A stretch of 58,680 nucleotides of DNA, counting the filler, from Malassezia furfur (lineage: Eukaryota): the NCBI GenBank assembly GCA_052055015.1. It is 6 parts of 6 records of this genome, joined end to end, with 100 filler letters (N's around TTAATTAATTAA, not from the genome) between each part and the next. Parts side by side here need not be neighbours in the genome. Positions count along the whole stretch, not along the records: positions 1 to 9,768 come from JBQJIT010000410.1; positions 9,869 to 19,623 come from JBQJIT010000411.1; positions 19,724 to 29,416 come from JBQJIT010000412.1; positions 29,517 to 39,183 come from JBQJIT010000413.1; positions 39,284 to 48,940 come from JBQJIT010000414.1; positions 49,041 to 58,680 come from JBQJIT010000415.1. One strand, given 5' to 3'. The notes under the pieces are model-generated. The model made no database searches. It was given only the letters and a program-made list of their open reading frames with translations, and was not told the DNA's origin. Made by a program: the position numbers and the translations under genes. Below are positions 8,580 to 56,303 of the stretch, piece by piece (positions within the stretch are counted from its first letter, which is position 1; the number at the start of each line of letters is the position of its first letter).

Positions 8580-9664
8580 CTATGGTACCCAGACCTGCTC
8601 GAGCTGGTTCGACTCGTCCTGGGCCTGCTGTTGCATTTGCTCCATGTGGGCGCGTGCCAGCTGGTGTTCCTGGGTTTCGGAGCGGAGGCGATTGACGAGG
8701 CGGATGCCATGTACCGCCTTGCGGAAGGTGCGCTTGGCGTTGAAGGCGCTCTTGAGGTCTGGCAGCAGGTCCTTCTGCTCCGCGTCTTCCGTACGTCCCG
8801 CGTGCCGGATCCACGGATGTTGCAGTGCCTGCGTCGCCGTCATCCGCTGGTTCTGGTCAATGGTAAGCAGGCGGCGGATAAAGTCGCGCACCTCGTCAGA
8901 CACGTCACGCCAGTAGATCTCGGGCTCAAACTTGTAGTCGGCATTGACGATGGCCTGCATCTCCTCGGCGCCCGAGTCGCGGTCAAACGGCGTGTAGCCA
9001 CAGAGCAGGAAATAGGTGATCACGCCAATGGCCCACATGTCGACTGGCTTGCCATGGCCCGTCTTGCGGAAGATCTCGGGGGCCATATACCCTGGCGTGC
9101 CGCATGTCGTGCTGAGTGCCGTCATCTTGTCGTCGTCGACCATGCGCGACAGGCCGAAATCGGCAATCAGCAGGTCGGAGTGCTCGCTGCGGTCGCGGAA
9201 CAGCAAATTCTCCGGCTTGAGGTCGCGGTGGACGATGCCCTGCGCATGCAGGTACTCGACCGCCTCCAGCACTGTCCGGATAATCTGAGCCGCATCCTTC
9301 TCATAGTAGCTGCCCCGCTCGCAGATGCGGTCGAACAACTCTCCGCCTTGGCAGAGATCGGTGACCAAGTATAGATTGTTCATCGTCTCGAAGTAGTCGA
9401 CCAAAGATACGATGCCTTTGTGGTCCACCGAGACGCGCTTTAGAGATGCAATTTCGTTGCGCACCATGTGCTCGCGCCCACGCATCAGGCTCTTGCTAAT
9501 GACCTTGCATGCATAGTACTTGCCAGTCTCAATGTGCACCGCTTCCTTGACCACCTGCGTGAATAAAAGTCACGTACAGCATATGTTCCTTGACCAAGCG
9601 TCCGGCCCGTTTTGTAGGCACACGGCACCGTAGCAGGCCGCTGCGCTGCTGCGTTCGTCGCCAT
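8580..9664 (-). CDS. CMK1: Ca2+/calmodulin-dependent protein kinase (CaMK1 family), 1 intron
   Basis: LGQGTYA|VVKEA is restored by a 23-nt intron at 9555-9577. Also HRDLKPEN, DFG, CGTPGYMAPE and a CaM-binding-like FNAKRTFRKAV. Confidence 0.9.
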
Positions 9665-9768
9665 CGTGGGGGATGGGGGGCAGACGCGATCCGTCACGTG
9701 ATACAACCATCCGCTCGATGGACTTCTTTGGTGGGGCGAAGCCGAAGGAGCGTGCACAGGGCCGGGCG

Positions 9769-9868
9769 NNNNNNNNNNNNNNNNNNNNNNNNNNNNNNNN
9801 NNNNNNNNNNNNTTAATTAATTAANNNNNNNNNNNNNNNNNNNNNNNNNNNNNNNNNNNNNNNNNNNN
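9769..9868. other. Artificial contig spacer (N44-TTAATTAATTAA-N44)
   Basis: Six-frame stop linker flanked by Ns. Confidence 0.99.
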
Positions 9869-10035
9869 GCGCACAGACCAGCGTCGCCGAGACGGAAATC
9901 GCCTCGGGCCTCGGCCGCGACGTTGACGCGGCGATTCGCGCCGCCCAGGGCGCATGCACGCCCGAGGAGCGTGCGGTGCTGGATGTGCTGCACCGCTTCT
10001 CGCAGCAGTACCTCGGCGCCTCGCGCTCGGAGTAG
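9869..10035 (+). CDS. 3' end of an unidentified protein (partial)
   Basis: Open frame AQTSVAETEIASGLGRDVDAAIRAAQ...QQYLGASRSE-TAG with the codon style of neighbouring genes. Confidence 0.5.
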
Positions 10036-10110
10036 ACGCGCGCCATAGTACGACATACCCTGTTCGTCCCAGCCCCCCAGGTGGAGGTCCGCATCGCCGG
10101 CTCCCCCGCC

Positions 10111-12383
10111 ATGCAGGCCGACGTGCCGCCGGGCGCCGCGCTGCACGCGATGCTCGCGACGCCGCACGACGAGCCCGCGACGCACGAGGCATTTGCCGTG
10201 CTCTCGGAAATGTACCCCGGCGCCGACTTGCGCCGCATCCGCGCACACGCGCGGCGCGACCTCCGCCGCGACGCCAACCGCGCGACACGCACGTTTTGCG
10301 CGGCGCTCGCGGACGTCGACGCTGCGCTCGCGGACATGGAAAGCGAGACTAGCAACGCAAAGAAGGCGTGTGAGACGACGCTCGCGTCCATGGACGACGC
10401 CATCGCCGCAGCGCAGCCGGTGCTCGAGCATGCAGGCGCACTCACCAAGCAGAGGTAGGTCCCTCACTCACCCAGCGAAACCGCCCAGCTTCACGAGGAG
10501 ATGGCGCGAAAGCTGCTGGACCGCATGACGCTCTCGGCCACCGAGGAACAGGCGCTCCTGCAGTCCGACGCGCCCGTCGACGCTGCACTGCTTGCGTCCA
10601 TCGACAAGCTGCATGCCATCCTGGGCGACGCCCTCCTCCTCATGGACCTTGGCGACCTGCGTATCGGCGACAACACACCCGCAGACGGTCCCCATCCCGA
10701 GCACCCGTCGTCGGCACGCATCCCGGAAGAGGCCCAGGCCACGATCGATCTTCGTGCGCGCGCGTCGGCCCTGCTCGATACGGCGTACCGCCGCGTCGCG
10801 CATTATGCGTCGTCGGCGCTGCGCCGGCTCCCGATCGAGGGCGCCGAGGCACCCGAGATCCTGCGCGCAGCACTCCAGCGCCTCGCCGCGCGCGAGGACC
10901 TCTTCCGCTCCGTCCTCGCGGCGTTTGCCGAAACGCGCGCGGCGCTGCTTCCCGACGCATTCGTGCATGCGCTCACGGTCGGTGGGCCAGCGCCCACCTA
11001 CCTGCCGCGCCCCATTGAGATGCACGCGCACGACGCGGCACGGTACGTGTCCGACATGCTCGCCTGGGTGCACCAGCTGCTGGCGAGTGAGCGCGAGCTG
11101 ATCGTGTCGCTATTGGCATCGCTAGCACCGCCGCCGCCCGCCGCCGACGATGCCTCCGCACGCAGGCACCACCGCCGGATTGGCGAGCGGCACACGGGCC
11201 TCGACGCGAGCGTCGACCTGCGCGGCGCCGGGCCGCTTCTCCGGCCGGGGCACACGACGCTGGATGCACCCGTCTTTGACGCGCTCGTGCGCAACATCCT
11301 CGAGCGCAACGTCGCAGGCTGTTGCCGCCCACTCAAGGTGCGTGTGCTGCACACGCTGCGCAGCCAGATGGACGGCGTGGTGGTGCTTCGCCTCTATTTT
11401 CTGCTGCGTTTTTACCGCACGACCATGCAGCATACGATCGGCGCGCGTGCCGAGCTTAGTACGACGCTGCGCGAACTTGTGCAGGTCGCCGATGAGTCCT
11501 TTGTGCGTGCGCTTCAGGCGTTCTTTGACGCGCGCCTCGCGCACTTCGCTGCGCTGCCCGGCGCCGACGCACTGGCCGCAACGCGCGAAGCGGCACAGCT
11601 TGTGCGTGCGAGTCTGCAGGAATGTGCTCAGGCGCGCGACGCGGATGCGTCAAGCACCGAGGACGTCCAGGCACTCGAGCGCCACGTCGCCACACACTTT
11701 GTCGAGCCGCTGCGCAAGGGCGTCGCGGCCTGTGCGATGCGGCCACGCGCTGAGACATCCGCGGAGCCCGACGGATGGTCGCGATACCTGCGCTGGTCCG
11801 CGGCACCGAAGGCGGCCGAGCGCGTGTACGAAACGCAGGCGTGGCATGCCGACGTCTTTCTTGTCCAGGCGCTCGCCCCAGTCTGGGTACGTCGATGCAC
11901 TAACTCCAGTCGGCGCTGCAGCCATATGAGGGCGAAACTCAAGCGACTTGCCGTCAACTGTCGGTGCAGCTTAGCGCAGCGCTCGAGCGCATCGCCGAGG
12001 CACACGTACGTCGCTTGCTCACACAGTACACGGCGCTCGTTCAGGATGCGGCGCTCGATTCGGTCGTCAACAAGACGTCGGCGACGGACGCTGCGGTCGG
12101 CGAGGCACTGCATGCTTTTCTAGCGTCGCCTGAGCTGCTCATTGCACCCTCGCGGCTGCAAGCACTTCCTACGCCCCTCCCAGCCACGATCCACCGCGCG
12201 GCGCTCGCCCAAATCGCCCACCAGTACGCCGAAGCGCACCCGGCGCCCGTCTCGCCCGAGGCGGCCAGTCTGCCCGCTCCGAGTGAGGTTGCGATGCTTC
12301 TGGATGTGCAGGACACCAAGAAGGCCATGCCTGCACGTGCATTGCTCGAGCGCGCGCTAGTTGCGTCTACGAAAAGTACTTAG
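10111..12383 (+). CDS. COG6: Conserved oligomeric Golgi complex subunit 6, 2 introns
   Basis: Motif PRPIEMHAHDAARYVSDMLAWVHQ. Introns 10455-10475 (21 nt) and 11887-11909 (23 nt) join three ORF-track fragments in frame. Confidence 0.88.
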
Positions 12384-13078
12384 GCGCTGCGTTCTCGTAG
12401 CCCTTCATGTCCTCGGGGGCAAAGCAGCAGAATACGACCTGGTCGAGCTTGCTGCCGCTCGGTCCCTCGAGGAATGCCTTGACCTGCTCGAGCGCCGCAT
12501 CGGTCGCGGCTGCCTTGGGGTAGCCGTACACCCCGGTCGAGATCGAGGGGAACGCCTGGGTGAGCCATGCGCCCACATACCACGGAACGCAGCCCTGCGT
12601 CGGCGGCGACCTGCAAGCTGTTGCGGTACGCAGCCTGGAGCAGGGCCTTGCTTTCGCTCGGAGAGTTCTCCGCATCTGTATGAGTGCCTGGACCACGTAC
12701 AAACGGGGCCGACGGTGTGGATGACTGCCTTGGCAGGCAGGTTGTAGCCCTTGGTCAGCTTTGCTTCGCCGGTCGCACATCCCTGGGTTAGGCTATGACA
12801 CACATTGTGCTGGCGGCACTCCTCCAAGAAGCGTTTATCATTCGCAGCGCGGTGGATGGCGCCATCGACTGCGTGAGCGTAGCACGTACCGCCGCCGCCG
12901 CCCAGGAGCGAGTTGTTTGCGGCATTGACGATGGCGTCGACACGCACTGCATCAGCGCGCGGTTACCTACGCTTCGTAATGTCACTGCGTCAGATTATTC
13001 CACTTACCCGCAGCACAGCGCGATCTTCTTGGCAAGCGCGTTGGCAAACGGAAGCGGCACGAGCGTCGGTGCGGCCAT
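12367..13078 (-). CDS. MacroD/YmdB-type macrodomain protein (ADP-ribosylhydrolase / O-acetyl-ADP-ribose deacetylase family), 6 introns
   Basis: Spliced product [33 protein letters not shown]...[24 protein letters not shown]...[13 protein letters not shown]. Introns 12985-13007, 12947-12970, 12869-12889, 12783-12803, 12676-12700 and 12556-12580; 14-nt exon at 12971-12984. Confidence 0.92.
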
Positions 13079-13174: not shown

Positions 13175-13566
13175 ATGAGTGTGCCCCAACACCCCCAGCA
13201 GCAAGTCATCCTCCAGCACGCGCCGGAGCCCAGTGTGCTTTCGAAGCGTACGTGCACCGACTTACACAGTCACGATGGGCGCCATGATGGGCTCGCTTGT
13301 GGGCCTCACCATTGGCTTTATCGGCGGTGGTTTCCAGATCCTTCGGTACGTCGCCTCTCTGACCCAGTGCCGGTCCTGGCCCCCGCGGTGCTCTTGCGAC
13401 GCTGTCGCAATACATGCTGTCTTCTGGCGCCACGTTCGGCTTCTTCATGTCGATCGGCTCGGTCCTCCGCACCGAGTCGGCGCTGCACGACGACGAGCGG
13501 TGGCGCGCCGCTTTCCGTGCGCACGGCAACCGCGTCACGATCGCCGAGCGTGCGCGGCGCGAGTAG
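13175..13566 (+). CDS. MGR2: Mitochondrial TIM23-associated Mgr2/Romo1, 2 introns
   Basis: Spliced product KLTMGAMMGSLVGLTIGFIGGGFQILRAGPGPRG...MLSSGATFGFFMSIGSVLR. Introns 13248-13269 and 13346-13367 (22 nt each). Confidence 0.9.
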
Positions 13567-13586
13567 TTGATACAGGTAGCTACGTA

Positions 13587-14562: not shown

Positions 14563-17500
14563 ATGTCGGCGTGGATGTCGAGCGGGCGCGAGCCCGTGGT
14601 CCTGCTGCAGGACTCGGTGTTCCGCGTGCGCCAGTTCGTGCAGACGCTCCCACCGGGTGCTAACGAGGCGCTGCACGCCGACCCGTACGTCGCGCCGAAC
14701 GCCGCGGGCATCGACGCCGAGTCGGAGTATGCGTTCTGTACAACGGCCGACCGTGCGCATGTCTGGCGGAGCAACAGCGCGAACCCGACGTGCTACACGT
14801 TCCCGATCCCTGCATCGAGCGACCACTGTGCTGTGCACTGCACACTCCTCCCGCGACCGCTCAACGAGAGCGCCGAACCTGCGCTGCTGCTCGCGAATGC
14901 CCAGGGCGAAGTGCGGTTCTGGGACGTGGTCTCTGACGCATTCACCACGCCTGAGGCCGAAATCGTGCAGACCCAGCTCCCGCTCGAGCACGGCGAGGTG
15001 CTTACCGCTGCCACACGCATCGACGTACGTCCCGCCCACTGACGCAGCCGAGCCAAGCCGTGTACGCAACGAGCGCGGCGCGCCTCTTCCGCGTGCATGC
15101 CTACGTACACCGCGGCGAGCACCACCTCGTGCACTCCGTGTATACCGAGCACAAGGGCTTGCTCAGCCGCTTCTTCCAGTCGGCGCCGGGCGCGGCCGGG
15201 AGCGGCACCATCAAGCGCCTTGCGGTCGGCGCCGCGTCGGCGGATGCACTGCATGTGCACCTGTATGCGCTCAGCGCCCATGCCGTGCAGGTGTGGCGCG
15301 TGCCAATCGCCGGCTCTGGCGCGGCGTCGCACCAGCCCAAGCACCTCGTTGACGACGACCAGCTGCACAAGACCATCGCGAGCCGCGCGATGTGTGCGAG
15401 CGGACGGCGGTACAGCAACGCCGCTGGCGCCCAGCTGCAGCTCGTCGACATTGCGCCGTTGTCAGCGCACCGCATCGCCGTGCTGTACGCGGACCAGAGC
15501 GACGTGTCGTCGAGTGCTGCGGCGTACGGCCTGGCGCTGGTGGGCGTCGCCGCCGACGGCACACTGGCCGTAGAGCAGGTGCGTCCACTGGCCTACCGCC
15601 GCGCGAACGACCCCCGTGCCCTGCCGCGCCTCGCCGTGTCCGAGAGCGCGCCGCCCGTCGCGTTTGTCGCGTTCGACGACGCGCTCGTCACGCAGCTGCT
15701 CGGCGATACCGCCGGCGGCGCCGTCGAGGAGAGCGTCGTGCTCAAGCCCGGCGAGAACCGTGTACTGGGTGCGGCACTGGTGCTCGCACCTGGCGCACCG
15801 GGCGCGCGCGCGGTGCGCTGGGCCGCGCAGACGTCGCACAGCGGCGTGCTGCTCGTCGACATGGACGTGGCACATGCGGCACACATCGCCGAGGAGCAGC
15901 AGCCAACGTCGCCGACCATGCACGCCGCGCGCGTTGCGCGCCTCCAAGAGCGCCTCGAGAAGGGCGTGTGGTACGGCGAGGACGCGGCGAATCCGCTGCA
16001 GCTCGACACGCTCCCCGACGACCTCGACACGGATCTGCTGCAGGCCGCTGTCGAAAACATCAGCCGTGCGCTCGTGCGTGGCGAGCTGAGCGCAATGCGT
16101 ACGTCGGTCGACCTGCGCACGGCGCTGGCGCAGCGCGTGGCGTGCTGCGTGCGCCTGATTGCGCTCGTGGGCGAGAATGGCTACCTGATGCGCCTCGCCC
16201 GCACCGCGCGCCTGCAGCTGCGCAGCGATGCCGAGCTGCTGGCCGGTGCGGGCGACCTGTGGCGCTTCTTTGATGATAGCGTGCAGAGCGGCACGCACGG
16301 CGCACACCTGCTCCCCGCGGCGATCCACACCGCGCTCGGCACGCAGAGTACGCCGCACGACACGGAGCGCTTCTTTTTCGAGCACGAGCTGGAGCAGATG
16401 CCTGCGCTGCTCGCCGCACTGCTTGCCGCCGTGCAGCCGCGCACGGACGATGCGCGCGCCGTCGTCGAGGCTACGCGGCTCGTGCTTGCGCTGCGCTTCG
16501 GCGCCGCGCGTTTCCGCGCGGAGCACGGCGAGGCGTATGCCCTCGACGCCACGCCGGCCGTTGCGTTCGAGCCGTGGTTCGCGCACGCGAGCAGCATTGA
16601 GCTGCTCGAGACGCTTTTCCGTGCGACGCTGCACACGCTGCAGCGCAACGCCAAGGGTGTCAAGGTCGCCGAGCTGCGCACGCAGCTGTGTGCGCTCGCC
16701 GAGTTTACCATGGACACGTACGATGCGCGCCTCGTCTACCTCACCGCGGCTGCGGCCGACGGCGACGGGAGCGGTCCGGCGCTCGAGGCGACACGCGCCG
16801 CGTACGACCACGCGCGCCCTGCGCTGCTGCACCCATTGCTCGACGTCGGGCGCGCCGACAAGGCGTTTGCGCTCGCCGAGCAACACCGCGATTTTGCAAC
16901 ACTCACTGCGCTGTGCTTTGCGACCGCACCCGAGGACACCGCGGGTGGCAAACGTGCTAAGCATACGCACCCCGCGGCCGCCGCGCACGAGCCGGCCGAG
17001 GTGCGAGTCGAGGCCTACCTGGACCGATACGGCATGCCGTTTGCCGAGGAGCTGTATCAATACTACATCCAGCACGGCGCGTTCCGCAAGCTGTTTGAGC
17101 CGCAGCCGGAGCATGCGCCGCTTGTGCTCACCTTCCTCGAGACGCATCCGCAGTATCGTCGCATGGCGTGGGTGCACGACGTGCTGCTCGGCCGCTTTGA
17201 CCGCGCGAGCGCCATGCTCCGTGTCTGTGCGCGCGAGGAGCGCGACGACTACCGCGCGAAGCAGTCGATGCTGAGCCTCGGCAAACTCGCACACCTCGCG
17301 ACGCTCAGCGACCTCGACGCGGCGCTCGCCGCGCCGCAGGAGCAGGCGGCGCTCGAGGCGTTTGACGACGCCCTGGACCTCGTCCACGTGCAGAACCGGC
17401 TGCGCGACCGCTGGGCACATGCCGCGCACACGGCCCAGACCGCACCCGAGGCCGCCGCGGAGCGTGTCGTGCAGACCGTCGCGCCGCGCCTCGACGCATG

Positions 17501-18206
17501 GCCCGCGACGCGCGCGCTGTTTGTCATGCTCGCCACGCAGCTGCTCGCCGGCCACGTGGCATCGGGCGAGGCGCTCGTGGACCTGCTCACCCTGCAGGAC
17601 CCTGCGTACGCGGCGCCCGCCGCCGACACGGCGCTGACCGACTTTGCCATTGCGGTGCAGGTGTACGTGCGCATCGACGCACCGGGTGAGCAGAAGCACA
17701 CGCTACTCGCGATGCTGTGGCGCCGGCTGTACCTCCAGGACGATTGGCACGCAGCAAGCTCCACGGCGCACAAGACCGACCAGGCCGTGCTGGAGGAGGT
17801 GCGCAGCACCGTGGCCTTTGCCACCATCCAGGCGGTGCTTGCGAACGAGAGCACGGCGCACGTGCTGCTCAGCCCCGAGCAGGTGTGCGCCCGTGCGCCG
17901 CCGAGTGTCGAGGCGCTCGCGGCGCGCTTCCCCGGTGTGCCGCACGTCCAGCTCACGCAGCTCCATGACGAGTGGGAGGCGGAGCATGCACAGCTCGTCG
18001 AGCTCGTTGAGCAGACCAAGCTCGCCTCGTTCTTTGCGCAGGTACTCGCCCAGCCCGTGCCCGATGCCGACCCGGTCGAGGCCCGGACGGCACGCGCCGA
18101 CGAGGTCGACGAGGACGACGACATGCACGACGCGCCGTGGGCTGAGCGCAAGCTGCCCGGGTACGCCGCATTTGATGCGCCTCTTGACGTCGAGGAGGCA
18201 ATATAG
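14563..18206 (+). CDS. NUP133: Nucleoporin Nup133, 1 intron
   Basis: About 1200 aa, propeller-like N-terminus plus helical stack; AFALAEQHRDFATL, WVHDV...FDRAS, MLSLGKLAHLA. A 23-nt intron at 15025-15047 joins the 14350 and 15060 ORFs. Confidence 0.8.
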
Positions 18207-24963: not shown

Positions 24964-25584
24964 TCACCGCCGCTGCGGGCCGGTGTTCTGTAGCGTATCG
25001 ACCATATCGCGGAACTGCGCAATGATCTCGGCCTCTTTGCGCGCGCGCTCTTCGGCCTGCTGCTTGAGGTATGCCCGGCGCTCGTCGGTCGCATAGTTGC
25101 GGCGCGAGCGGCGCTGCGTGCTGGCTGCGTCGCCCGGCGCCGATGCGTCGTCCAGGGGCGGAGTTTCGGTGTACGGCTGCGGCCCCACCTCCTCGTCGTC
25201 GCTCGGATCGGCGGCTCGCGCGGGCGGCGCCGGTTCCTGCCGACGCGGCGACTGTTCCATGCTCTTCGACCGCGAGCGTGACCGGTGGTGGTGGCGGTGC
25301 CGATGCGAGCGATGTGCATGCCGCTCTCGATCTGAGCGGGGCGTGCGGCGGTGCTCATCGTCCGCGTCGTGCGCACGATGCCGCTCGCGGTGGTGCCGGT
25401 GGTGACGACGCGCGCGGTCGGCGTCGTGTGCCGACGTCGCCCGGCGCGCCTCGTCTTCGCTGTCCGAGAGCGAGCGCCGTGGCGAGGGTGGCCAGATCGT
25501 GTACGAGGCTGCCTCGCGTGCCTCGTAGCGCTGCTGTACGCGCGCCGCTACCGCGTCGCGCGCTGCGAGGCCCGTGCTCGCCAT
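24964..25584 (-). CDS. NKAP-like (DUF926/SynMuv) protein with an apparent internal deletion
   Basis: N-terminal IWPPSPRRS, an RS/His-rich middle, EEVGPQP, and a C-terminal YATDERRAY....EERARKEAEIIAQFRDMV matching the NKAP tail YSADEKRAL....EER.KRE..I.A.FREMV. Confidence 0.7.
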   Translation of the reverse strand: MASTGLAARDAVAARVQQRYEAREAASYTIWPPSPRRSLSDSEDEARRATSAHDADRARRHHRHHRERHRAHDADDEHRRTPRSDRERHAHRSHRHRHHHRSRSRSKSMEQSPRRQEPAPPARAADPSDDEEVGPQPYTETPPLDDASAPGDAASTQRRSRRNYATDERRAYLKQQAEERARKEAEIIAQFRDMVDTLQNTGPQRR

Positions 25585-29416: not shown

Positions 29417-29516
29417 NNNNNNNNNNNNNNNNNNNNNNNNNNNNNNNNNNNNNNNNNNNNTTAATTAATTAANNNNNNNNNNNNNNNNNNNNNNNNNNNN
29501 NNNNNNNNNNNNNNNN
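29417..29516. other. Artificial contig spacer
   Basis: N44-TTAATTAATTAA-N44. Confidence 0.99.
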
Positions 29517-42390: not shown

Positions 42391-43094
42391 CTATCGGAGC
42401 TTTTTGTCTTCAAAGAAGGTCTGGGTCAGTGGGACAGTCGACGTACCCGCAAGTTGCTCAGCTGCCAAATGCACGCGACGACCAGCGCAATGATCTGGAT
42501 CAGGATGCACCAGAATGCGCGCGCATTGGTCGACTCGCTCAAATCGCGGAAGCTCATCTCGCGCTCGCGCTGGAACTGCTGCTCCTTGCGCAGGTCGCGC
42601 ATCTTGGCGTTGAGCGAACGCGCACGCGACAGGAGGTCGTTCGAGTGCTCCTTGTCCGCCTGCGTGTTGGGCCGGTGCGAGTCACCGAGCACGACCTCGA
42701 CGTGCATCCGCACCTCGGGCAGGTGGCCGTTGCTCATGCGCTTGCCGTGGTACTCGGTCTGGACGCAGATTTCGTGGTTGCCCGGCTCGTGCGACGTGAA
42801 CGCAAACTTGCCCTCGGGCTTCCCGCGCGCCGACACAAGGATGTGGTCGGTCTCGATGTGCTTCACAACAATGCCGATGCCGATATCGGTGGGTATATCG
42901 TAGTGGGACTGCGTGTCGTCCCACTCTTCCGTGTAGTAGTGGGCGACGACGATCGTGTCCTTTGGCAGCTGCTCGTAAAAACACTTGTTCGCGCCCGCCT
43001 CAAAGTAAAAATAGAGCGGCTGGACGCTCCGCACGAGCGTCAGCACAAACACCGCGAGCCACGCTGGGCTCATACACGCGCGCGGCACCCGCAT
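42391..43094 (-). CDS. p24/emp24/gp25L family cargo receptor, 1 intron
   Basis: Signal peptide, GOLD domain LYFY...KCFYEQLP...FAFTSHEPG.H.IC, EQQFQRERE..FRD.SESTN, TM. A 26-nt intron at 42421-42446 yields the tail TFFEDKKLR. Start 43094 or 43073. Confidence 0.92.
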
Positions 43095-43188: not shown

Positions 43189-43787
43189 ATGCCGCCCGCC
43201 GCGTCGCCCGAGGTCGAGCTGCGCCAGATCGGCCTGGGGTTCACGCGGCTTCTGTTCCCGTTCTGGGTGCGCAAGCAGCCGAAGCAGCATCCGCACAAGC
43301 TGCTTAACTCGACCGAGCGTCTCGATCTACGGTACGCCGTCCGCATGCTTACCGCAGCGCGTCGCAGCGCACGTTCGATGGCGCCTACACCCGCGCGGCG
43401 CTCGGTCAACTGTCGTTTGCGCTGGCCGTGATGCGCCTTTTCCAGAAAGAGTTTTTCTGGATCGGGTTCGCGAACTGCATCATGTCACTGGGGCTGTTCA
43501 TCACCGCCGTGCTGCGCTACCGCATGACAATGCAGTATTCGGCCAAGGTCAGCGAGATGGGCACCATGCGCCAGAAGGTCTACGCACAAGATGCAGCGGC
43601 GTCTGCACAGGATGCGGCGGCGCGCTCGACGGCGGACGCGATCGACACGGCGCAGCCGCCGGTCGTTGAGGAGCATTCGTACCTGCTGCTGCCCCGCTTC
43701 CAGACCGCGGGCTACGTGGTCGCATTCGTGACTCTATTTGTGCTTGGCGTGGAAGTCGCCATCATTGTACTTATCCTCACCCTGTAG
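43189..43787 (+). CDS. DUF202-family small membrane protein, 1 intron
   Basis: A 26-nt intron at 43332-43357 gives LRASQRTFDGAYTRAALGQLSFALAVMRLF..EF..IG, with three TM segments. Confidence 0.75.
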
Positions 43788-43932: not shown

Positions 43933-45732
43933 ATGTCGATATCGGCCGTGCAGTCTGTGCCCAGCAGATCCGCTGCGGAGAAGGGTGCTGCACCGCAGCC
44001 CTCGCGCCCGTTTTTTGCGGACGAAGTGGAAGAATTGGGCGACGAGGAGCTCGGCGAAGACGTTGACCTGGGCGTGGGCCAGTATGCCGACGCATTCCGC
44101 GGCAGCAGCGCGGACGAATACACACTTTCCGAGTCACTGCAACAGAGTACGTGGCTGGATGCTCACACAGAAGCCGTGCCGCCGGTGCACACGCGCACGA
44201 TGGCCGCCGCCCAGACGGCCATTCCTGAGCCGGTGCGCAAATACCTCGTTCTGTTCCACCAGGCGATCGTGAGTCACTCGATGCCAGACATGATCCATGC
44301 GTACGAGTCGCACTGGAACCGGCTCACCGAAAAGTACTACCAGCGCACCGAGTGGCCGGATGCCGAGACCATCGCGCCGCTGGTGGGCGACGACGCAACC
44401 TTCCTGATGCTGTACCGCGAGTTGTGGTACCGGCACGTCTACTCGCGCCTCATGCCCGACGGAGAGGACCGGTTCCAGTCATACGACAATTACTGCGACC
44501 TGTTCAACTATATCCTGAACTCGGACGGGCCGGTGCCGTTGGAGCTGCCGGTGCAGTGGCTCTGGGACATGATCGACGAGTTTATCTACCAGTTCCAGTC
44601 CTACTCACAGTGGCGCAACAAGGTACACACCAAAAGCGAGCACGACTTGCAGCTGCTCCAGGATGGCGGAGTGTGGAGCGCGTACAACGTGCTCAACGTC
44701 CTCTACTCGCTTATCCAAAAATCGCGCATCACCGAGCAGCTGATCGCCAGTGACGCGGGCGAGGAGCCCGAGGCGGTCGCGGGTGCGTTCGGCGCGCGGC
44801 CGTTGTACAAGACGCTCGGCTACTTTAGCCTGATTGGCCTGCTGCGCGTGCATGTGCTGCTGGGCGACTATACCTTGGCGCTCAAGACGCTCGACCACCT
44901 CCATCTCCACCAAAAGAATGGCTTCTTGAACCGCGTCACGGCGTGTCATGTCACCGCGTACTATTACGTCGGCTTTGCGTACATGATGCTGCGCCGCTAC
45001 CCCGACGCGATCCGTGCGTTTTCGCACATCCTCGTGTTTGTGATGCGGCTACGGCAGTACCACACGCGGAACTATCAGTACGACCAGATCAACAAAATGT
45101 CCGACCGCATGTATGCACTGCTTGCCATGTGCTGTGCGCTGTGCCCGACGCGCCTCGACGAGAACGTGGCATCGGCGATGCGCGAAAAGTACGGCGAGCA
45201 GTACGCCAAAATGACCCAGGGCGGCGACGATGCACTTCATGCCTACCAAGAGCTGTTCCTCTACGCGTGTCCCAAGTTTCTGACGTGCAATCCCCCGCCC
45301 TACCACGATGCCGATGCGCTCAAGGCGTACGCGCAGGCGCCGCCCCTCGACCCCGTGCAGCACCAGCTGCGGCTCTTTTTGGCCGCGGTCCAGACGCAGC
45401 GGTCCAACGTCTCGATCCGCGCCTTTTTGCGCCTCTACACCGCGCTCGGCACCGACAAGCTCGCGAGCTTCCTCGAGGTCGATGAAGAAGAGGTGCTCGA
45501 GATGCTCATGGTGCTCAAGAGCAGTACGCGGAGCGTCAAGTGGACCGCAGGCGGGCTGCTCGAGGGCGAGGTGGTGCGCACGAGCGACCTTCAGTTTGCG
45601 ATCGACGCCGACATGGTGCAGATCGCGGAGGCGCGGATCGGGCGCCGATACGGCGACTGGTTCGTGCGCAACGCGAGCCGCATGCACGACGTGCTGGTCG
45701 CGTTGCGGCGCAAGCCGCTGCCTGTGCCCTGA
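43933..45732 (+). CDS. EIF3L: Translation initiation factor eIF3 subunit L
   Basis: [63 protein letters not shown]. Probable in-frame 24-nt intron at 44147-44170. Confidence 0.95.
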
Positions 45733-48273: not shown

Positions 48274-48940
48274 CTAAAACTTGCGCTGAATCGGATCGAT
48301 GCGCTGTCCCATCTTGGTCGTGACGCGCGGGAGCGTGAGGCGCTGGTGCTGCGTCCGGGTGTTCCACTCGGACCCAATGGGCTGGCGCATCGCCGCTTCG
48401 TACTGCGCCGCGCTGGTATACGGGTACGGCAGGTCCTTGGCTTTGAACTTGGCCGCCTTCTTGTCGAGCCGCTCGTTGATGATCACGTTGTCCATCGCGC
48501 GGTCCTTGCGCTGCGCCGGGTCGAGGCCCGGCACGTGGCGTACGTGCTCGGGCTTCTTGGGCTTGCGGCGCGCGCCCTTGCCGCCCCACGCGCCCCACCC
48601 GGGCAGCTCGGTGGACTCGTCGCGCGGCGCCTCGGCACGCACTGCGCGCTGCTTTTCGCGCGCAAAGTCGAGCGTCACGTCGTCGCCCGCAAACGCCTCG
48701 GACACGAGGTCGCGCTGCTGCATCGGGAGCAGCGTCGAGGCGCGCTTGCCGCGCCCCCGCTTGCCGCGCGCATGCTTGCTCGGCACCTCGACCATCTCGT
48801 CGCCGCTCGCCTCCGAGGCGCTCGGCGCGTCGTCGGCCGCACGCGCGAGGTGTGCGTCGGGCTCGATCGCGAGCGCCGCGTCGTCGGCCGCGGCGTCGCG
48901 CGCCACGAACCAGGTCCTCGTGGGCAAGGACAGCAGCGCG
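48274..48940 (-). CDS. UTP14: SSU processome protein Utp14, C-terminal part (5'-partial)
   Basis: QRDLVSEAFAGDDV..DF..EK, LPGWGAWGG, RKD....VIINE, LPYPY....QYE..MR.PIG.EWN, G..IDPI. Confidence 0.93.
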
Positions 48941-49040
48941 NNNNNNNNNNNNNNNNNNNNNNNNNNNNNNNNNNNNNNNNNNNNTTAATTAATTAANNNN
49001 NNNNNNNNNNNNNNNNNNNNNNNNNNNNNNNNNNNNNNNN
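48941..49040. other. Artificial contig spacer
   Basis: N44-TTAATTAATTAA-N44. Confidence 0.99.
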
Positions 49041-50533
49041 GTCCGGGCAAGGGCTGGGACGAGTCGGCGTTTGTCACGTCGCGGCCCAAGCTCGTCGCGC
49101 AGCGCACGCAGGCCCCGTCGTCGGCGACACGCGCCCAGGCACCTCCCGCTGCACCGGCCGCACGGCGTCCGTCGCAGCAGTACGAGCGTGCGCGCGATGA
49201 CGCACGCACCCCGCCGCGTGAGCGCACCAGCTGGCTTGCGGGCCTGTTCAAGCCGCACGAAGGCTCCACCGCACGGCGGCTGTCCAAGCGCCTGTCGATG
49301 CCGCTCGTCGGTGCACCGCCGTCGCGCTCGGCAGCACGCATGACAAGCGGCGGCACCGCACGCACTGCCTCGACGCAGCGTGTGCGCCCCACGATCGTGC
49401 TCACCCAGTCTGCCGACGCTCGGACGTCATGGGGGGCCGACGCCGAGACCAACGACGACGCAGATGCCTCGACGCATACGGTGATTGACACCCAGGCGGC
49501 ACCTGCGCAGGACTCCACGGTGCACAGCAGCGCATACGCCGAGCACAGCGCAGACGCGAGGCTCGAGGCGTACCCCCCGCCGGCACACGCCGACGGTGCG
49601 TGGGCGGCAGACCCAGGCGCAGCGGCACCGGTGCCGCCGAGCGCTTCGCAGCCAGTCGGCTGGGACACTGCCGAGGCGTCTGGGGCGTGGAATGTGGCGC
49701 AGCCAACGTACCCGACTGCCGAGGCGTCCGCGGCGTGGAATGCGGCGCAGCCGTCGTATCCGACCGCCGAGGCGTCCGCGGCGTGGAATGCGGCGCAGCC
49801 GTCGTACCCGACCGCCGATACGTCTGCGGTGTGGAACGCAGCGCAGCCGTCGTACCCGCCCGTCGCGGCGTCTTCGAGCGAGGCCACAGGGCTGGCGCCA
49901 GCGCTGTCGTACCCGACCACTGAGGCGTCCGCGGGTTGGAATGCAGCGCAGCCGTCGTATCCGACCGCCGAGGCGTCCTCGAGCGAGGCCACAGGACTGG
50001 CGCCAGCGCTGTCGTACCTGCACGTGCCTGTCGTGCCGTGGCCGACGTACCTCTCCCATGATACCAGCTCGCCCAGCGAGCGCGCTGCGCCACGCGCGTA
50101 TGCACCTCCCGAAATACCTGTGCGGCGCACCGATGCGTCGGTACGCGCGCAACGGCACTGGAGCATGCCGACGTCGCTCGCCGGCGCGCTCTTCCCCCCA
50201 GCCGACACCTCGCCGCAGCTCGCGCCGCCGATCGGCGCGGTAGCGGGCCGTGCCGCGTCGCCGTTCCTGCCCGCGCTCTTCCTAGCGCCGGCGTCTGGTG
50301 CGCCGCGCGCCGTGTCGACGCCCGTGCGCCCTGCGCCGCAGCGCTCGGCGTCTGGCGCGTTCAAGTGGCGCGCACCTGGCTCGTTTACAGCGCGCCGGCG
50401 GTCGCAACCCCTGCCGCCGCTGCGGCCGCCCCCCGAAAGCGGACTCCCGCCGATCCCCGACGTGCCGGACACCTCGGGGTCGCTGCCGATGAGCGAACGA
50501 AGTGGAAATGAAGCGTTCGGCTTCGCCGTATAG
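49041..50533 (+). CDS. Low-complexity Ala/Pro/Ser-rich hypothetical protein with internal repeats, 5'-partial
   Basis: Frame is open from the contig start (PGKGWDESAF...) through the 49298 ORF to a TAG. Confidence 0.65.
49667..50018 (+). repeat. Coding minisatellite, 48-nt unit (WNAAQPSYPTAEASAA) with a 105-nt higher-order duplication
   Basis: TGGAAY unit starts at 49688, 49736, 49784, 49832 and 49937. Confidence 0.92.
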
Positions 50534-50543
50534 CTATGTACAG

Positions 50544-52290
50544 TCATTCCATCTCACGCCCCCCCGACGCATGCTCCGCGAGCGAGTGGGTCTTTTGCCA
50601 CGACTCGAGCACGAGCTGGAGACGCATGCGTGCGGCGTGCAGCGCTTCCTGGTCGCCTGGCGCATCGGCCGGCCCCAGCTGCTTGTTGCGTACGCCTTCC
50701 TGCAGGAGCAGCGTCCAGAGTTTGTGTACCTGCCGGCCGTAGCGCTCCTGCGCGGCGATGCCTGCCACCTCCAGGAAGGTGCACCACAGCGACGCGACGA
50801 GTGACTGCCGCGCGACCGGCGGCGTGGTGCACCGCACCTGCCACGTCCACATCCGCGCCGGGCGCAGCACCTCAGGCACGGACTGCGCCGCGTCGGGCAG
50901 TGACACGGACGGCGGCAGGCCGCTGCACTGGACGACGGACGGCAGTGCTGTTTGCAGGCACGCAAAGTACAGGGCTGCGATGCCCGCCATGCGCGACACA
51001 TACATGTGCGTCGACTCCTCCGTGTCCGGGCGGAACCCGAGCATCTTGCGATACGTGCGCTCGTCGGTGTCGGTCGGGCGTTCGGGCACATAGCCCAGTA
51101 CATACGGACACTTTTTCACGAGGCGCGCCATGAGCACATGGCCCAACTCGCCGTGGCCGCGCAGCATGAGCCCGAGCGCGGTGCGTGCGAGGGGGTACGC
51201 CGTCTCCTGCCGAGCGGCGACCTCCTGCTCCGCCTGCCGGATAAGGCCCTTGGCGAGGTGGTTGAGGGTCCAGTAGTAGAGGAAGCGCTGCGCCTGCGTA
51301 TCCGGTACGTCCTTGGCCTCTTGCAGCACGGTGTGGATCGCGTTGGTGATGCGCGCAATCTCGGCCTGCGTGTTGGTCAGCTGTCCAATCTTGGGCGTGA
51401 TGGCGCGCTTCGCAGCAAAGCACTGCTTCCGCCATGCCGGATTCGCCGCGACTGCCGGCAGGATTTCCTCCTTGATCGTGCGCATCTCGGCCTGCCAGTG
51501 CGCATACTCCTTCGCGGCGATCGGCCAGATGCGCTCGCCTCCGCGCATCGTATTGTACACGCCCTCTTTCTGGGCGAGCTCGGCGAGCTCCTTTTCCTTG
51601 GCGGCCGCACGCGCCTTTTCCTCTTCGGCTGCGCGCTTCTCGCGCTCGATGCGCGCGAGTTCGGCCTCGCGCGCGCGCTTTGCCTCGGCCTTGGCCTGCT
51701 CCTGGCGCTTGCGTGCGTGGGCGAGCTGCTCGGCCTCGTGTGCCGCGCGCTTTTCGGCGTCGCGGATCGCCTGCTCGATGCCCTCCCAAAGCGACGCGTT
51801 GCGCTGGTCGAACGACTCGCGCTCGATGCGCTCAGATTCCTTCTGCTGCAGCTGGAAGCGAGAAAGCAGGTCCGACACCTCCTGGACGCTGCGGTCTGCG
51901 GCGCGCGGCGTCGAGGCGTGCCGCACACGCACGGGGCCCTGGTGAAAGATGGGCCGCTGGGTCAGTAAGCACGCGACGTACCCATGCACGTCGCCGGCTC
52001 TCGGCCTCCCATGCCTCCCATGGATCGAGTTCGTTTGCGAGCCGCACGGCAGACAGGTCAGCGGCGTGCTCGCCCGCGTCGGTATCGTCGTCGTCGTCGT
52101 CGTCGCTCGCAAGGTCGGCCCACCACTTGGGCCGCGGCACATCGCGCCAGTTGACGGGATCGGTATCGCTCTCATCGTCCGACGACTCGTACACGTAGCG
52201 CCCTGTCGGCTTGCGCGGCGCCAATGCGTCCATGCGCGGCGCGCGCTCTGCACGCTCGGTCCGCGCCGGCGTCGTCCGCCGAGCAGCCAT
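50544..52290 (-). CDS. GLE1: mRNA export factor Gle1, 1 intron
   Basis: Coiled coil, then KIGQLTN, WTLNHLAK..I.QAE.EV, AYPLA, LMARLVKKCPY, Y..RM.GI.ALY.A. 25-nt intron at 51957-51981. Start 52290 or 52233. Confidence 0.88.
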
Positions 52291-52325
52291 CGTCGTCGCG
52301 ACGACGCCCGATCGCCCGATGCACA

Positions 52326-53667
52326 ATGCCACCAGCCGCGTACGACGTGCTGGCGCTGTCGCCGCAGTGCCCGGTGGTGCTGCCGCTGACCATTGCGCAC
52401 CAGTGCGGACAGGCGTTCCGGTGGCGCAAGGTGCTTGTGCCTGCGAGGGGCAAGGAGCCGCGGCGACTCGAGTGGTCGCTGTGCCTGCGTGACCGCGTCG
52501 TGTTCGTCACGCACGATCGTGCGTCGCATGCGCTGCTGCACCGCACCGTGTATGCGCCCAACGCGGCGCGCACCGACACAGCGAGCTGGCTACGAGACTA
52601 CCTAAACCTCGACACGCCCGCGGCGACGTGGTTCGAAGAGTGGAGCGCCAAGGACCCCGTCTTTGCGAAACATGCCCAGCGGTTTGCGGGGGGCAACATC
52701 CTGCGGCAGGACCCGTGGGAGTGCATGTGCGCGTACGTGCCCCGGCTCACACAGCTTTATCTGCAGCTCCAACAACAACATCCCGCGCATCAGCCAGATG
52801 GTGCACAAGCTGTGTGAGCACTTTTCGCCGTGCCTGCATGTCGAAGACTACCCACCAGGCGCCCGCCTGTGTCATACCCTCGACATGAACGAGCTTGCGG
52901 ACGAGCCAGAGAAGCATGTGTCGCTTGCGTACCATCCCTTCCCGCCGCCCACGCGGCTCGCGCAGCCCGACGTAGAGGGACGGCTGCGTGCGTTGGGATT
53001 CGGGTACCGAGCCAAGTACCTCGCACAGACCGCCGCGATGCTGTGCGAAAAAGCACGCGAAGCACTCCCTTTGGGTGCGCCCGACGAGAAGGTCGACGAG
53101 GCCGTGTATGCCGAGCTGTTGCAGCTGCGCCACCTGTCGTACTATGACGCTCGTGAACGGCTGCTGCCCCTTGCCGGCATCGGCCCTAAAGTCGCCGACT
53201 GCATACTGCTCATGTCGCTTGACCAAGCGAGCAGCATTCCCGTGGACCGCCACGTATTCCAGTTTGCCGAGCGGTGGTACGGCATCCGCACGAAACGGTA
53301 CGAAGAGGTCGCCGACCGCCTGCGTGCCATCTGGGGCGAGCGTGCGGGCTGGGCGCACTCGGTACGTCGCGAGACTGACCCCCAGTTCCTGTTCTATGCC
53401 GACCTTCCCTCGCTGCTCGCGTACGAGCCGGATGCCGACGTGAAGGTGGAGCCCAAGGCGGAGCCGGGCGAGGCACCGAACGCAGAGGACTGCGCGCACG
53501 ACACCGATACGAAGCCCAAAGTGGAAGGGGCGCATGATGACATGCCCGCGCCCGCCTCTGTCAAGCTCGAAGATACCGACGGCGTGGTGCCTGCGGACCC
53601 CGCTGGGCGCGACAGCCGCGCCCGCGACGCCATAGAGACTCCTAGCAAACGCGCACGGACCGCGTAG
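52326..53667 (+). CDS. OGG1: 8-oxoguanine DNA glycosylase/AP lyase, 2 introns
   Basis: CGQAFRW, ILRQDPWE..AFICSSNNNIPRI, LGFGYRAKY, HhH-GPD GIGPKVADC...IPVD.H, AGWAHS. Introns 52733-52754 and 53362-53385. Confidence 0.95.
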
Positions 53668-53704
53668 CGCGGCGGAGTGCTGCTTTCCTCCACATATCAA
53701 CACG

Positions 53705-56303
53705 ATGGAGGCCATGCGGCAGCGCCTGCTGGCGCAGCAGCTGGGCCTCGCTTCGCCGACGCCCGGGACACAGCAGGACCGCGGGAGTCCACGGACACCC
53801 CAGGGTGCTGCGTCGCCCAGTGTACGTGCGCGCCCGGGATGGCGTACCGAGCCGCGTGTGCGCATGATGCCGTCAACGCCGGAGCCGCCGAGCCCCTGGA
53901 TGTTGGGCCGTGGCCCCAGCACGCCGACGCGTGGTACGCCGCAGACGCGCACGCCGCAGAGGCGAACACCCGATCACAGCCTGGGAACACCCACGGCGCC
54001 CGGGACACCGCTCGAACGGAGCAACCTCTCTGCGAAGGACCGCGAGAAGCAGCTGCAGACGATGCTCTCGAGTCTTGTGACGGTCGTTGAGAAGGTCGAC
54101 ATGGACAAGGCCAACGTCCCCGGCCTGCTGTGCCGTCTGCTGCCGCACCAAGTGCAAGGCATCGAGTGGATGCAGCAGCGCGAGTGTGGCGACATCAAGG
54201 GGGGGATCCTGGCCGACGATATGGGATTGGGCAAAGTACGTCGCCGGCTCACACAGACCGTACAAATGCTGGCGCTCATCTTGCAGCACCGGACCCTGGA
54301 CAGCATGCAGTCGAACGAGCCGACCGACGACCTGGCCGCGAACCTGGCCAAAGAGGGCCTCGGCAAGGCCAAGGCCAAGAACAAGGCGCCGCCGACCAGT
54401 GGCCAGGACGACCCCGACGGTGCGGTGTTTGTGGACGATGTGGAAGACATGCTCGAGCAGCGGCGCAGGGCCGTGTACGCATCGGGCACCAAGACGACGC
54501 TCATCATTGCGCCGCTCGCGGTCGTGGAGCAGTGGCAGCGCGAGGCAAACGAAAAGACGGGGCACAAACTGCAGGTGTATGTGCACCATGGCCCGCACCG
54601 CGCCAAGTCGGTGGACGTGCTGCGGCGCGCCGACGTGGTGATTACGACGTACGCGACAGCCACCAACGAGCACTCGCAGTACCTCGCCGACTTGGACCAA
54701 GATGCGCCGAACCTCGGGTCGCAAGGGCGCCCCATTGCGCTGGATTCGGACTCGTCCAGCTCCGCGTCGGCGTCGTCCGACTCGGACACACCGCTGCCCC
54801 GCCGTACGGTGCGTAAGCCGCGTGCGCGCGCCCCACGCGCGCCGCTGTTCCAGATGAAGTGGCTGCGCGTGGTACTGGGTAGGTGGTTTGGCTGACACAG
54901 ACGAGGCGCACAACATCAAGAACTACCGCGCCAAGAGCAGCCAGGCGTGCTACGAGCTGTCGCTGAATGCGGCGTCGCGCTGGTGCCTGACCGGGACGCC
55001 GCTGCAGAACAATGTGCTGGAGCTGTTCAGCCTGATGCACTTTTTGCGGGCGGCGCCGTTTGATGACCTGTCGCACTTTCGCGAGAAGATTGACGACCCG
55101 CTGAAGAGCAAGTACGTTGCCGAGCCTCACGCAGCATCCGCGCGCGCAGCGAGTACGGGATGAAACGGCTGTGCGTCGTTCTGCGCACCATCATGCTGCG
55201 GCGCACCAAGGATGCCGAATACAACGGCAAGAAACTGCTGCAGCTGCCGAAGCGCAACGTCGACGTGGTCATGCTCGACTTTGCGAGTGAGGAGGAGCGC
55301 GCGTTCTACCGCAAGAATGAGCTGCGCATCAAGGACAGCCTGTCGGACGAAGCGGACGGCAAACACGATATGATGGGCATGCTGGTGATGCTCCTACGAC
55401 TACGGCAAGGTAGGTGGTGCACTGACGCAGCGTGCAATCACCCTGCGCTGATCACGGGCCAGGCGCCGCGTGCGCCGACGGCGCCCGATGCGCCGGCCGT
55501 CGCGGCGGCCGACACCGGCATGAGTGCGGACGACGAGCTGGCCGAGCTGCTGTCGGGGCTGTCGGTGCGTACGCAGCACTGTGAGCGGTGCCAAGTGTCG
55601 CTGCCTGCGTCGCACCCAGCCGAGTCGGGCCACGTGCTGTGTGCCGGGTGCCGTGCGCAGGCCAAGGACGAGGCGGAGCGCGGCATCGACTGGGGCACGC
55701 GGAGCTCTTCTAAGGTCGACAAGGTGGTGAAGCTCCTGGACATGATTCATCGCGAAGCGCGGGACGACAAGACGATCGTGTTTAGCCAGTTTACCTCGTT
55801 TCTGGACCTGCTGGGCCCCGTGCTGCAGAAGCACGGTGTGGAGTTTGTGCGATGTGCGTGGCTGCGTGGCTGACCCAGACGACGGGACCATGTCGCGCAC
55901 GGCGCGCGAGGCGGCGCTGCAGGCGATCCGGACGCGGCGCGAGACGCGCGTGATTCTGATCTCGTTCAAGGCCGGGAGCACGGGCCTGAACCTGACGTGC
56001 TGCAACCGGGTGATTCTGTGCGACCTGTGGTGGAATCCGCAGATCGAGGAGCAGGCGTTTGACCGTGCGCACCGGTACGTGGGCTGGCTCACACAGGCTC
56101 GGCCAGGCGAAAAACGTGTACATTTACAAGCTGTCGATCACCGACACGGTCGAGGAGCGGATTCTGCAGCTACAGGAGAAGAAGCGTGCGCTTGCCAAAG
56201 CGGCGCTGGATGGCAGCACGCAGCTGTCGCGCGGTACGTGACGAAGCCTGACGCAGCCTCGCGCCTGTCGGCGACGGAGCTGAATTTCCTGTTTGGTGCG
56301 TAG
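53705..56303 (+). CDS. SNF2-family ATPase of the Rad5/Rad16/Uls1 class with a reduced RING-like insert, 7 introns
   Basis: [68 protein letters not shown]. Introns 54236-54256, 54879-54900, 55112-55134, 55410-55430, 55854-55878, 56075-56096 and 56234-56256. Confidence 0.9.

Follow-up and report, generated by a model that had tools for sequence, protein, structure and literature searches.

The protein-coding genes of a 58,680-nt stretch of the Malassezia furfur genome (GenBank assembly GCA_052055015.1; hereafter the window, GC content ~67%) are interrupted by 37 very small elements that, judged from their sequence, are very probably ordinary U2-type GT-AG spliceosomal introns shrunk to little beyond three recognition signals. 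We scanned both strands with a regular expression consisting of a donor (GT[AG]NG[TC]), a branch box ([CT]TNA[CT]), a spacer of 1-3 nt and AG, and removed nested alternatives. This independent scan returned the same 37 elements, located between positions 9555 and 56256, that a preliminary description of the window had claimed as tiny introns. They are distributed over 16 genes, and the window as a whole has ~30. Intron lengths were 21 nt (7 introns), 22 nt (10), 23 nt (6), 24 nt (3), 25 nt (7), 26 nt (2), 27 nt (1) and 34 nt (1), with a median of 23 nt (n = 37). The earlier tally of lengths agrees with ours except for one boundary placed 3 nt away, which gave six introns of 21 nt and four of 24 nt. 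As 36 of the 37 introns measure 21-27 nt, the bulk of the introns in this one window fall below 30 nt.

All 37 introns share the same signals. The donor conforms to GT[AG]NG[TC] throughout (GTACGT, 25; GTAGGT, 4; GTGCGT, 3; GTACGC, 2; GTATGT, GTGTGT and GTAAGT, 1 each), the branch box is CTGAC (13), CTCAC (12), CTAAC (5), CTTAC (3), CTCAT (2), TTCAC (1) or CTGAT (1), and every intron ends in CAG. The presumed branch A lies 5 nt from the 3' end in 30 introns and 6 nt from it in the other seven, with a spacer of 1-2 nt between box and CAG (spacer letters: C16, G15, A12, T1). The donor, the YTNAY box and the terminal CAG had been reported correctly in the preliminary description, while its ranges for the spacer (1-3 nt) and for the distance from branch A to the end (5-7 nt) were each one nucleotide too wide. 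It had also reported that there is no polypyrimidine tract, and we found none in the 37 introns, whose spacers between 5' splice site and branch box are composed of G103, C98, A53 and T49. The box therefore sits at a nearly fixed distance from the AG with no pyrimidine tract, which is the arrangement of an anchored branch point and 3' splice site. The class described by Irimia and Roy (2008) also has a strict extended branch consensus in an intron-poor genome; the box here is CTNAC-like with a free third position.

Counted from the 5' G, the presumed branch A occupies position 16 (9 introns), 17 (9), 18 (5), 19 (5), 20 (6), 21, 22 or 28 (1 each). The linker between the donor hexamer and the box accordingly measures 6 nt (9), 7 nt (9), 8 nt (5), 9 nt (5), 10 nt (6), 11, 12 or 18 nt, and its counts drop off with distance from the minimum of 6 nt. 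The shortest introns thus consist of 21 nt divided as 6 + 6 + 5 + 1 + 3. We confirmed the earlier observation that the branch A never stands before position 16, that no intron is shorter than 21 nt and that the mode lies at the minimum (n = 37). The GC content of the introns is 60%; the tiny introns of ciliates are AT-rich. Minor introns of the U12 type, which have an extended RTATCCTT donor and a TCCTTAAC branch box, were ruled out, as all donors are GT[AG]NG[TC] with G at position 5 in 37 of 37.

The number of such elements is far beyond that expected by chance. We counted 39 matches to the strict pattern in the window, whereas 200 shuffles that preserved the dinucleotides gave a mean of 2.6 (sd 1.6, maximum 8). 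Listed introns account for 36 of the 39 matches, and three lie elsewhere (13550, 17935, 49382), which is approximately the chance number. Twenty-six elements have a length that is not divisible by three (non-3n), and in every one of them the best coding frame downstream is the spliced frame and not the read-through frame. Eleven elements are multiples of three (3n), with an in-frame stop in three and none in eight. When the introns are removed, an open reading frame (ORF) crosses all junctions in 16 of 16 genes; for Romo1 and the TRAPP subunit our ORF script took the wrong frame, and the corrected ATG-to-stop ORFs are 115 and 238 aa long. The spliced models were aligned to fetched homologs. 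Alignment to homologs or solved structures placed 18 junctions exactly (SNF2, 7 of 7; DPH6, 4 of 4; COG6, 3 of 3; GLE1; OGG1; and two in the MacroD gene), and most of the remaining junctions are backed by Pfam colinearity or restored motifs. The initial assignment of these elements to spliceosomal-type GT-AG introns of 21-27 nt is supported. Finally, we used a motif-blind gene finder, a dynamic programming procedure that knew codon usage and GT..AG only. It recovered 11 introns exactly with a 70-nt limit and 8 more with a 200-nt limit, and shared one boundary with the listed intron in 5 others.

Motif matches outside the list mostly fail the frame test. One of them, at 17935-17960 on the plus strand, is a motif-perfect 26-nt decoy (GTGTGC...CTCAC-G-CAG) in the sense strand of Nup133; its removal would break the frame, and coding potential runs on through it unspliced.

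The introns, together with a micro-exon in the MacroD gene, are as follows.

9555-9577, minus strand: CAMK-like protein kinase, 23 nt; frame switch.
10455-10475, plus strand: COG6, 21 nt; in-frame TAG; gap-free against 9 of 10 homologs when spliced out.
11887-11909, plus strand: COG6, 23 nt; frame switch; homolog alignment.
12006-12026, plus strand: COG6, 21 nt, 3n, no stop; if retained, a 7-residue insert missing in 8 of 10 homologs.
12556-12580, minus strand: MacroD-type macrodomain gene, 25 nt; frame switch; 190-aa model.
12676-12700, minus strand: MacroD gene, 25 nt; frame switch; the MACROD1/2 alignment stops at the donor.
12783-12803, minus strand: MacroD gene, 21 nt, 3n, no stop; when read through, a 7-residue insert compared with human MACROD1 and MACROD2.
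12869-12889, minus strand: MacroD gene, 21 nt, 3n, no stop; read-through gives a 7-residue insert directly past the GGGG motif relative to human MACROD1/2.
12947-12970, minus strand: MacroD gene, 24 nt, 3n, no stop; signals and a continuous 190-aa model; downstream flank of the micro-exon.
12971-12984, minus strand: MacroD micro-exon, 14 nt, between a 23-nt and a 24-nt intron.
12985-13007, minus strand: MacroD gene, 23 nt; frame switch; model.
13248-13269, plus strand: Romo1, 22 nt; frame switch; the 115-aa ORF exists only with both introns out.
13346-13367, plus strand: Romo1, 22 nt; Romo1 profile positions 7-30 in the exon before, 33-66 in the exon after.
15025-15047, plus strand: Nup133, 23 nt; frame switch; Nucleoporin_N profile colinear over the exons.
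24668-24701, plus strand: glutamyl-tRNA synthetase (GluRS), 34 nt, the length outlier; frame switch; acceptor firm.
25838-25862, plus strand: eIF5, 25 nt; frame switch; spliced N-terminus.
25967-25991, plus strand: eIF5, 25 nt; eIF-5_eIF-2B profile to position 42 (or 44) before the junction, from 46 after it.
27682-27703, plus strand: TRAPP subunit, 22 nt; TRAPP profile to position 81 near the exon end, then from 85 at the opening residue of the following exon.
27829-27853, plus strand: TRAPP subunit, 25 nt; TRAPP profile positions 129 and 130 meet exactly at the junction.
33091-33112, plus strand: diphthine-ammonia ligase (DPH6), 22 nt; gap-free against homologs including M. brasiliensis.
33399-33422, plus strand: DPH6, 24 nt, 3n, in-frame stop; homolog alignment.
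33610-33631, plus strand: DPH6, 22 nt; frame switch; homolog alignment.
33724-33744, plus strand: DPH6, 21 nt, 3n, no stop in frame; removal gives a gap-free alignment.
39566-39587, plus strand: CLC chloride channel, 22 nt; frame switch only; within a 944-aa ORF.
39856-39882, plus strand: CLC, 27 nt, 3n; in-frame stop 5 nt past the donor; coding on both sides.
40528-40549, plus strand: CLC, 22 nt; frame switch; 13 residues over 12 Voltage_CLC profile positions.
42421-42446, minus strand: p24/EMP24, 26 nt; frame switch; C-terminal tail supplied by a short last exon.
43332-43357, plus strand: DUF202 protein, 26 nt; frame switch; DUF202 profile begins (position 5) at the first residue past the junction.
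44147-44170, plus strand: eIF3L candidate, 24 nt, 3n, no stop; splice signals only.
51957-51981, minus strand: GLE1, 25 nt; gap-free against intron-less orthologs in three related loci.
52733-52754, plus strand: OGG1, 22 nt; exact alignment.
54236-54256, plus strand: SNF2-family ATPase, 21 nt, 3n, no stop; interrupts Walker A; removal restores register with 10 homologs.
54879-54900, plus strand: SNF2, 22 nt; alignment; SNF2-rel_dom profile resumes at the first residue past the junction.
55112-55134, plus strand: SNF2, 23 nt; homolog alignment and Pfam.
55410-55430, plus strand: SNF2, 21 nt, 3n, no stop; homolog alignment; interrupts a conserved helicase block.
55854-55878, plus strand: SNF2, 25 nt; homolog alignment and Pfam.
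56075-56096, plus strand: SNF2, 22 nt; homolog alignment; orthologous introns in two related loci, L001 (24 nt) and L004 (25 nt).
56234-56256, plus strand: SNF2, 23 nt; homolog alignment; orthologous 26-nt intron in L004.

Splicing of the kinase intron joins the glycine-loop exon to the remaining domain, with the Pkinase profile resuming at position 14 past the junction. The two COG6 homologs that do not simply lack the insert at 12006-12026 have, in one case, an 8-residue insert of their own at that site and, in the other, their end there. At the DPH6 intron 33724-33744, two other records have inserts at exactly that site. The MacroD gene contains six introns within 712 nt, separating exons of 71, 14, 57, 65, 82, 95 and 189 nt, and its spliced model (190 aa, ATG to stop) reads as a complete macrodomain. 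All seven SNF2 junctions are gap-free against ten homologs.

Alternative boundaries were rejected or disfavoured in four genes. In DPH6, an alternative acceptor giving a 36-nt intron was rejected by the homolog alignment. For the CLC intron at 40528-40549, the spacing of the Voltage_CLC profile disfavours an alternative donor giving 43 nt compared to 22 nt. A 55-nt version of the GLE1 intron proposed by the motif-blind finder was rejected because it destroys a conserved block, and OGG1 versions of 28 and 34 nt were rejected because they lose 2 and 4 conserved residues, respectively. A search for a missed intron in an Nkap_C-like gene (24964-25584) gave no candidate.

A number of points weigh against our interpretation or limit the figures attached to it. 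The list was drawn with the motif, so the 37 of 37 signal figures hold partly by construction, and non-consensus or longer introns may have been missed, which would bias the lengths toward the short end. The motif-blind finder also gave longer intron candidates; we set these aside as gene fusions or antisense artefacts, a judgement that was independently borne out only for the 55-nt GLE1 version. For 12985-13007 the same finder gave an alternative in-frame donor (32 nt), and the 34-nt GluRS intron has an alternative donor at 24677 (GTGCAC) that would yield 25 nt with the frame kept, where Pfam is uninformative about the exon tail. The eIF3L candidate is put forward on its splice signals, and the predicted introns at 12947-12970 in the MacroD gene and at 39566-39587 in CLC on frame, ORF and signals. 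The putative branch point is placed by its motif, and support at the RNA level comes from another species, M. sympodialis. A lower limit to length is visible, resting on 37 introns of one window.

We used public proteins and a few related contigs, in addition to the window itself, to place these introns among relatives. The best named protein matches of the window are to Malassezia, with M. brasiliensis as the nearest named species (identity: DPH6, 82% to M. brasiliensis; COG6, 92% to M. brasiliensis; SNF2, 55% to M. yamatoensis), which puts the source yeast in that lineage of Malassezia. One metagenome scan with an SNF2 homolog identified Malassezia-like loci with a GC content of ~49% in which the order GLE1-OGG1-SNF2 is kept. 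Run on three related loci, the motif-blind finder predicted a single intron in total and was dropped there as too insensitive. SNF2 has seven introns in the window versus two or three in the low-GC relatives. The GLE1 intron is missing in L001, L003 and L004, and the OGG1 intron is present in L001 (L001:9080-9105, 26 nt) and not in L003 or L004. The intron at 56075 has orthologs at L001:12214-12237 (24 nt) and L004:12205-12229 (25 nt), the intron at 56234 has one at L004:12383-12408 (26 nt), and L001:9559-9584 (26 nt) is an additional tiny intron. Donors in the relatives are GTATGT, GTACGT or GTGTGT, and the branch A lies 5-7 nt from the end. From these orthologous introns of 24-26 nt, we conclude that the genus is characterised by tiny introns anchored at their 3' end, and that the presence of individual introns varies between species.

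Public protein records carry traces of the same introns. Annotated M. brasiliensis proteins are gap-free over seven window junctions. Inserts of 7-8 residues stand exactly at orthologous intron sites in nine records from other Malassezia (P0002, P0005, P0006, P0126, P0127, P0130, P0131, P0244 and P0247), and the insert of P0006 is identical at every residue to the translated 24-nt intron L001:12214-12237. As far as these sequences indicate, gene callers evidently translate straight through tiny in-frame introns. Two further records, P0007 and P0009 (1174-1188 aa), show OGG1 domains fused to the SNF2 ATPase. As OGG1 and SNF2 are separate neighbours in the window (52224-56303) and in L001, L003 and L004, these fusions are probably annotation artefacts.

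Very short introns in the genus Malassezia are already in print. M. sympodialis has 5350 introns with a mean of 30 bp, 99% of which are supported by RNA-seq (PMC5389616), and the median and mean lengths of M. restricta introns are 30 and 37.2 bp (PMC9241646); as a group, Malassezia annotation studies set the minimum intron length at 10-20 (PMC5389616, PMC9241646, PMC6473144). According to a review, Malassezia are commensals of the skin whose genomes are small and compact (7-9 Mb) and contain "very short introns", and the genus thus fits the usual association of short introns with compact genomes. M. sympodialis was classed as intron-poor by Lim et al. The window introns represent the same phenomenon in the same genus, with a median (23 nt, n = 37) shorter than the published ~30. 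Given these RNA-seq-backed annotations and the seven junctions that are gap-free in M. brasiliensis proteins, the novelty assumed in the preliminary description has to be lowered, and its term "free-living" is inexact for organisms that the review describes as skin commensals. The text passages of the M. sympodialis and M. restricta papers do not describe a branch box, a fixed 3' distance or a lower length limit. Our literature search likewise found no description of a Malassezia branch box, spacing, length floor or ultra-short introns beyond size statistics, although supplements may hold such data.

The 3' end of the window introns resembles that of introns in Yarrowia lipolytica, Trichomonas vaginalis and Giardia lamblia, which lack a pyrimidine tract and keep the box at a constant distance from the AG (Irimia and Roy 2008, PMC2483917). 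In Y. lipolytica the order is ACTAAC, AC, AG, a spacing identical to that of 30 of the 37 window introns (CTNAC-N-CAG). However, the introns of Y. lipolytica reach a median length of 204 and hold to a stricter ACTAAC box (PMC2483917), whereas those of the window measure 21-27 nt and leave the third position free. Passages of the same paper tie the anchored layout to intron-poor genomes, in contrast to the 37 introns in ~30 genes of the window. Ustilago maydis, a member of the same subphylum, is similar in having CTGAC-type boxes and differs in length, with a median intron of 95 nt and the best box in only 12-30% of introns (PMC2483917); the compaction is therefore a feature of the Malassezia lineage in particular.

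Introns of comparable size have been described in distant lineages. Those of the ciliates Paramecium and Nyctotherus are ~25 bp long (PMC5014332), and Stentor, whose spliceosome is largely conserved, removes introns of 15-16 nt with a lariat turn of ~10 nt (PMC9505925). Ciliates are alike in that the spliceosome removes introns of 15-30 nt; they belong to a different supergroup, and Stentor goes well under the 21-nt minimum seen here. Microsporidia, dicyemids and myxozoans are exceptions to the rule of "no introns under 30 bp", with myxozoan medians of 22 bp (PMC13644364). Unlike Malassezia, these are obligate parasites, and microsporidian short introns are reported to be poorly spliced (PMC13644364), in contrast to the 99% RNA-seq support in M. 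sympodialis (PMC5389616). The 2026 paper's list of lineages with introns below 30 bp does not include Malassezia, and the genus name appears nowhere in its main text (PMC13644364). Malassezia is also unmentioned in the main text of a 590-species survey.

The elements begin with a 6-nt donor (GTRNGY, in most cases GTACGT), continue through a linker of 6-12 nt to a 5-nt box of the CTNAC type, and close with 1-2 nt and CAG. Taken as U2-type introns, they would be recognised across the intron (intron definition). U1 pairs with donor positions +1 to +6 and tolerates a mismatch at +4. The C found at +4 could be such a tolerated mismatch, fitting a GC-rich genome. U2 would pair with the CTNAC box and bulge the branch A, which, if branching takes place at this A, would give a lariat loop of 16-22 nt. 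The CAG located 5-6 nt downstream would then be the first AG after the branch and would be used without a pyrimidine tract, for which there is no space because only 1-2 nt separate the box from CAG. Deletion bias in a compact 7-9 Mb genome would push introns against a lower functional limit, which may lie at a linker of ~6 nt behind the donor hexamer and 5 nt past the branch A; the pile-up of lengths at 21 nt is the pattern expected under deletion bias against such a limit. The 14-nt micro-exon between a 23-nt and a 24-nt intron suggests that these two neighbours must be handled successively.

We consider it a tentative possibility that the 21-nt pile-up is a true structural minimum, with a 6-nt linker and 5 nt past the branch A, at which the spliceosome keeps both donor and branch-site helices. 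The GC-rich M. brasiliensis lineage would then stand at this wall genome-wide, splicing even 14-nt micro-exons, and its splicing factors would show matching changes related to the 3' site and branch. A harder version of this idea, a strong form of the reading in the preliminary description, sets a steric floor of 16 nt between the 5' G and the branch A, at which U1 and U2 cannot sit on the intron together, so that the spliceosome must be remodelled. The absence of any branch A before position 16, with nine introns at 16 and nine at 17, the absence of introns below 21 nt, the mere 6 nt between donor hexamer and box in the shortest introns and the 14-nt micro-exon are all consistent with it. However, the sample is 37 introns, and Stentor, with its introns of 15-16 nt, lariat turn of ~10 nt and mostly conserved components, indicates that 16 nt is no general limit (PMC9505925). 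For the same reason a remodelled spliceosome does not follow, and we regard the hard floor as unlikely.

It is improbable, in our assessment, that some 3n elements without a stop are retained, always or in part, as coding inserts of an "exitron"-like kind, the candidates being eIF3L 44147-44170 and possibly MacroD 12947-12970. As eight of the eleven 3n elements have no in-frame stop, their retention would go unpunished. The eIF3L region is variable, the PDB alignment begins downstream of the element, the MAFFT view is ambiguous, and scores for the spliced and unspliced versions are tied for the two nearest homologs (530 versus 529 and 422 versus 421) and stand at 297 versus 301 and 229 versus 215 for the other two; these undecisive alignments agree with the earlier remark that this element had been proposed from its splice signals. 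On the other hand, six of the eight (COG6 12006, MacroD 12783 and 12869, DPH6 33724, SNF2 54236 and 55410) proved to be inserts missing in nearly all homologs. In addition, ~2.6 strict matches per window on both strands are expected by chance, equivalent to ~0.04 per 1.8-kb gene strand.

We give virtually no credence to the proposal that the elements are not spliceosomal, whether as sequencing or assembly indels in pseudogenes or through excision of the IRE1 or tRNA-endonuclease type, for which their small size speaks and nothing else, whereas the GT..CAG ends, U1-type donor and branch box are common to all 37, the host genes are otherwise intact and conserved, and other species have orthologous elements of different length at these sites; the proposal is thus already contradicted. 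IRE1/HAC1-type and tRNA-type introns have stem-loop cleavage sites instead of GT-AG and branch signals, and the uniform layout (GT..CTNAC..CAG) makes such a reading unnecessary.

The gene content of the window was named by Pfam searches of stop-to-stop ORF pieces. The ~30 genes obtained include NOT1, PIG-N, a protein kinase, COG6, a macrodomain protein, Romo1, Nup133, CCDC47, Lon, a class I tRNA synthetase, eIF5, a TRAPP subunit, an IRE1-like kinase/RNase, SUV3, DPH6, OST48, a CLC channel, p24, eIF3L, HSP70, Utp14, GLE1, OGG1, the SNF2-family ATPase and an ABC transporter. An Rfam search of the window gave no match. The window contains ten masked blocks of 44 N each. The IRE1-like ORF (27985-29460, minus strand) has kinase and Ribonuc_2-5A domains and no space for a luminal sensor domain before the neighbouring gene; its 5' end meets a masked block, so the missing sensor may be a mask artefact. 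At 29469-30542 on the plus strand lies an ORF of 358 codons with a GC content at third codon positions of 0.94 and a high coding score, for which Pfam gave no match on either strand. The C-terminal profile of Utp14 covers 48277-48984 only; upstream on the same strand, a 520-codon ORF (48985-50547, minus strand) has no Pfam match, and a masked block lies in between.

Together, the introns of the window are an unusually short case of two known kinds, those of ultra-short intron lineages and those with an anchored branch point and 3' site. For annotation quality, the finding means that tiny 3n introns without stops are silently read through in public Malassezia proteins. With their anchored CTNAC-N-CAG 3' end, the introns add a further independent example of the layout seen in Yarrowia, Trichomonas and Giardia, here joined with extreme shortness. 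Agrobacterium transformation and targeted deletion have been described for M. furfur and M. sympodialis (PMC5654937). As Malassezia can be grown and transformed, the lower size limit of splicing could be measured with reporter introns. If the 21-nt pile-up is indeed a structural minimum, this culturable, transformable yeast would be a natural system in which to measure how small a spliced intron can be.

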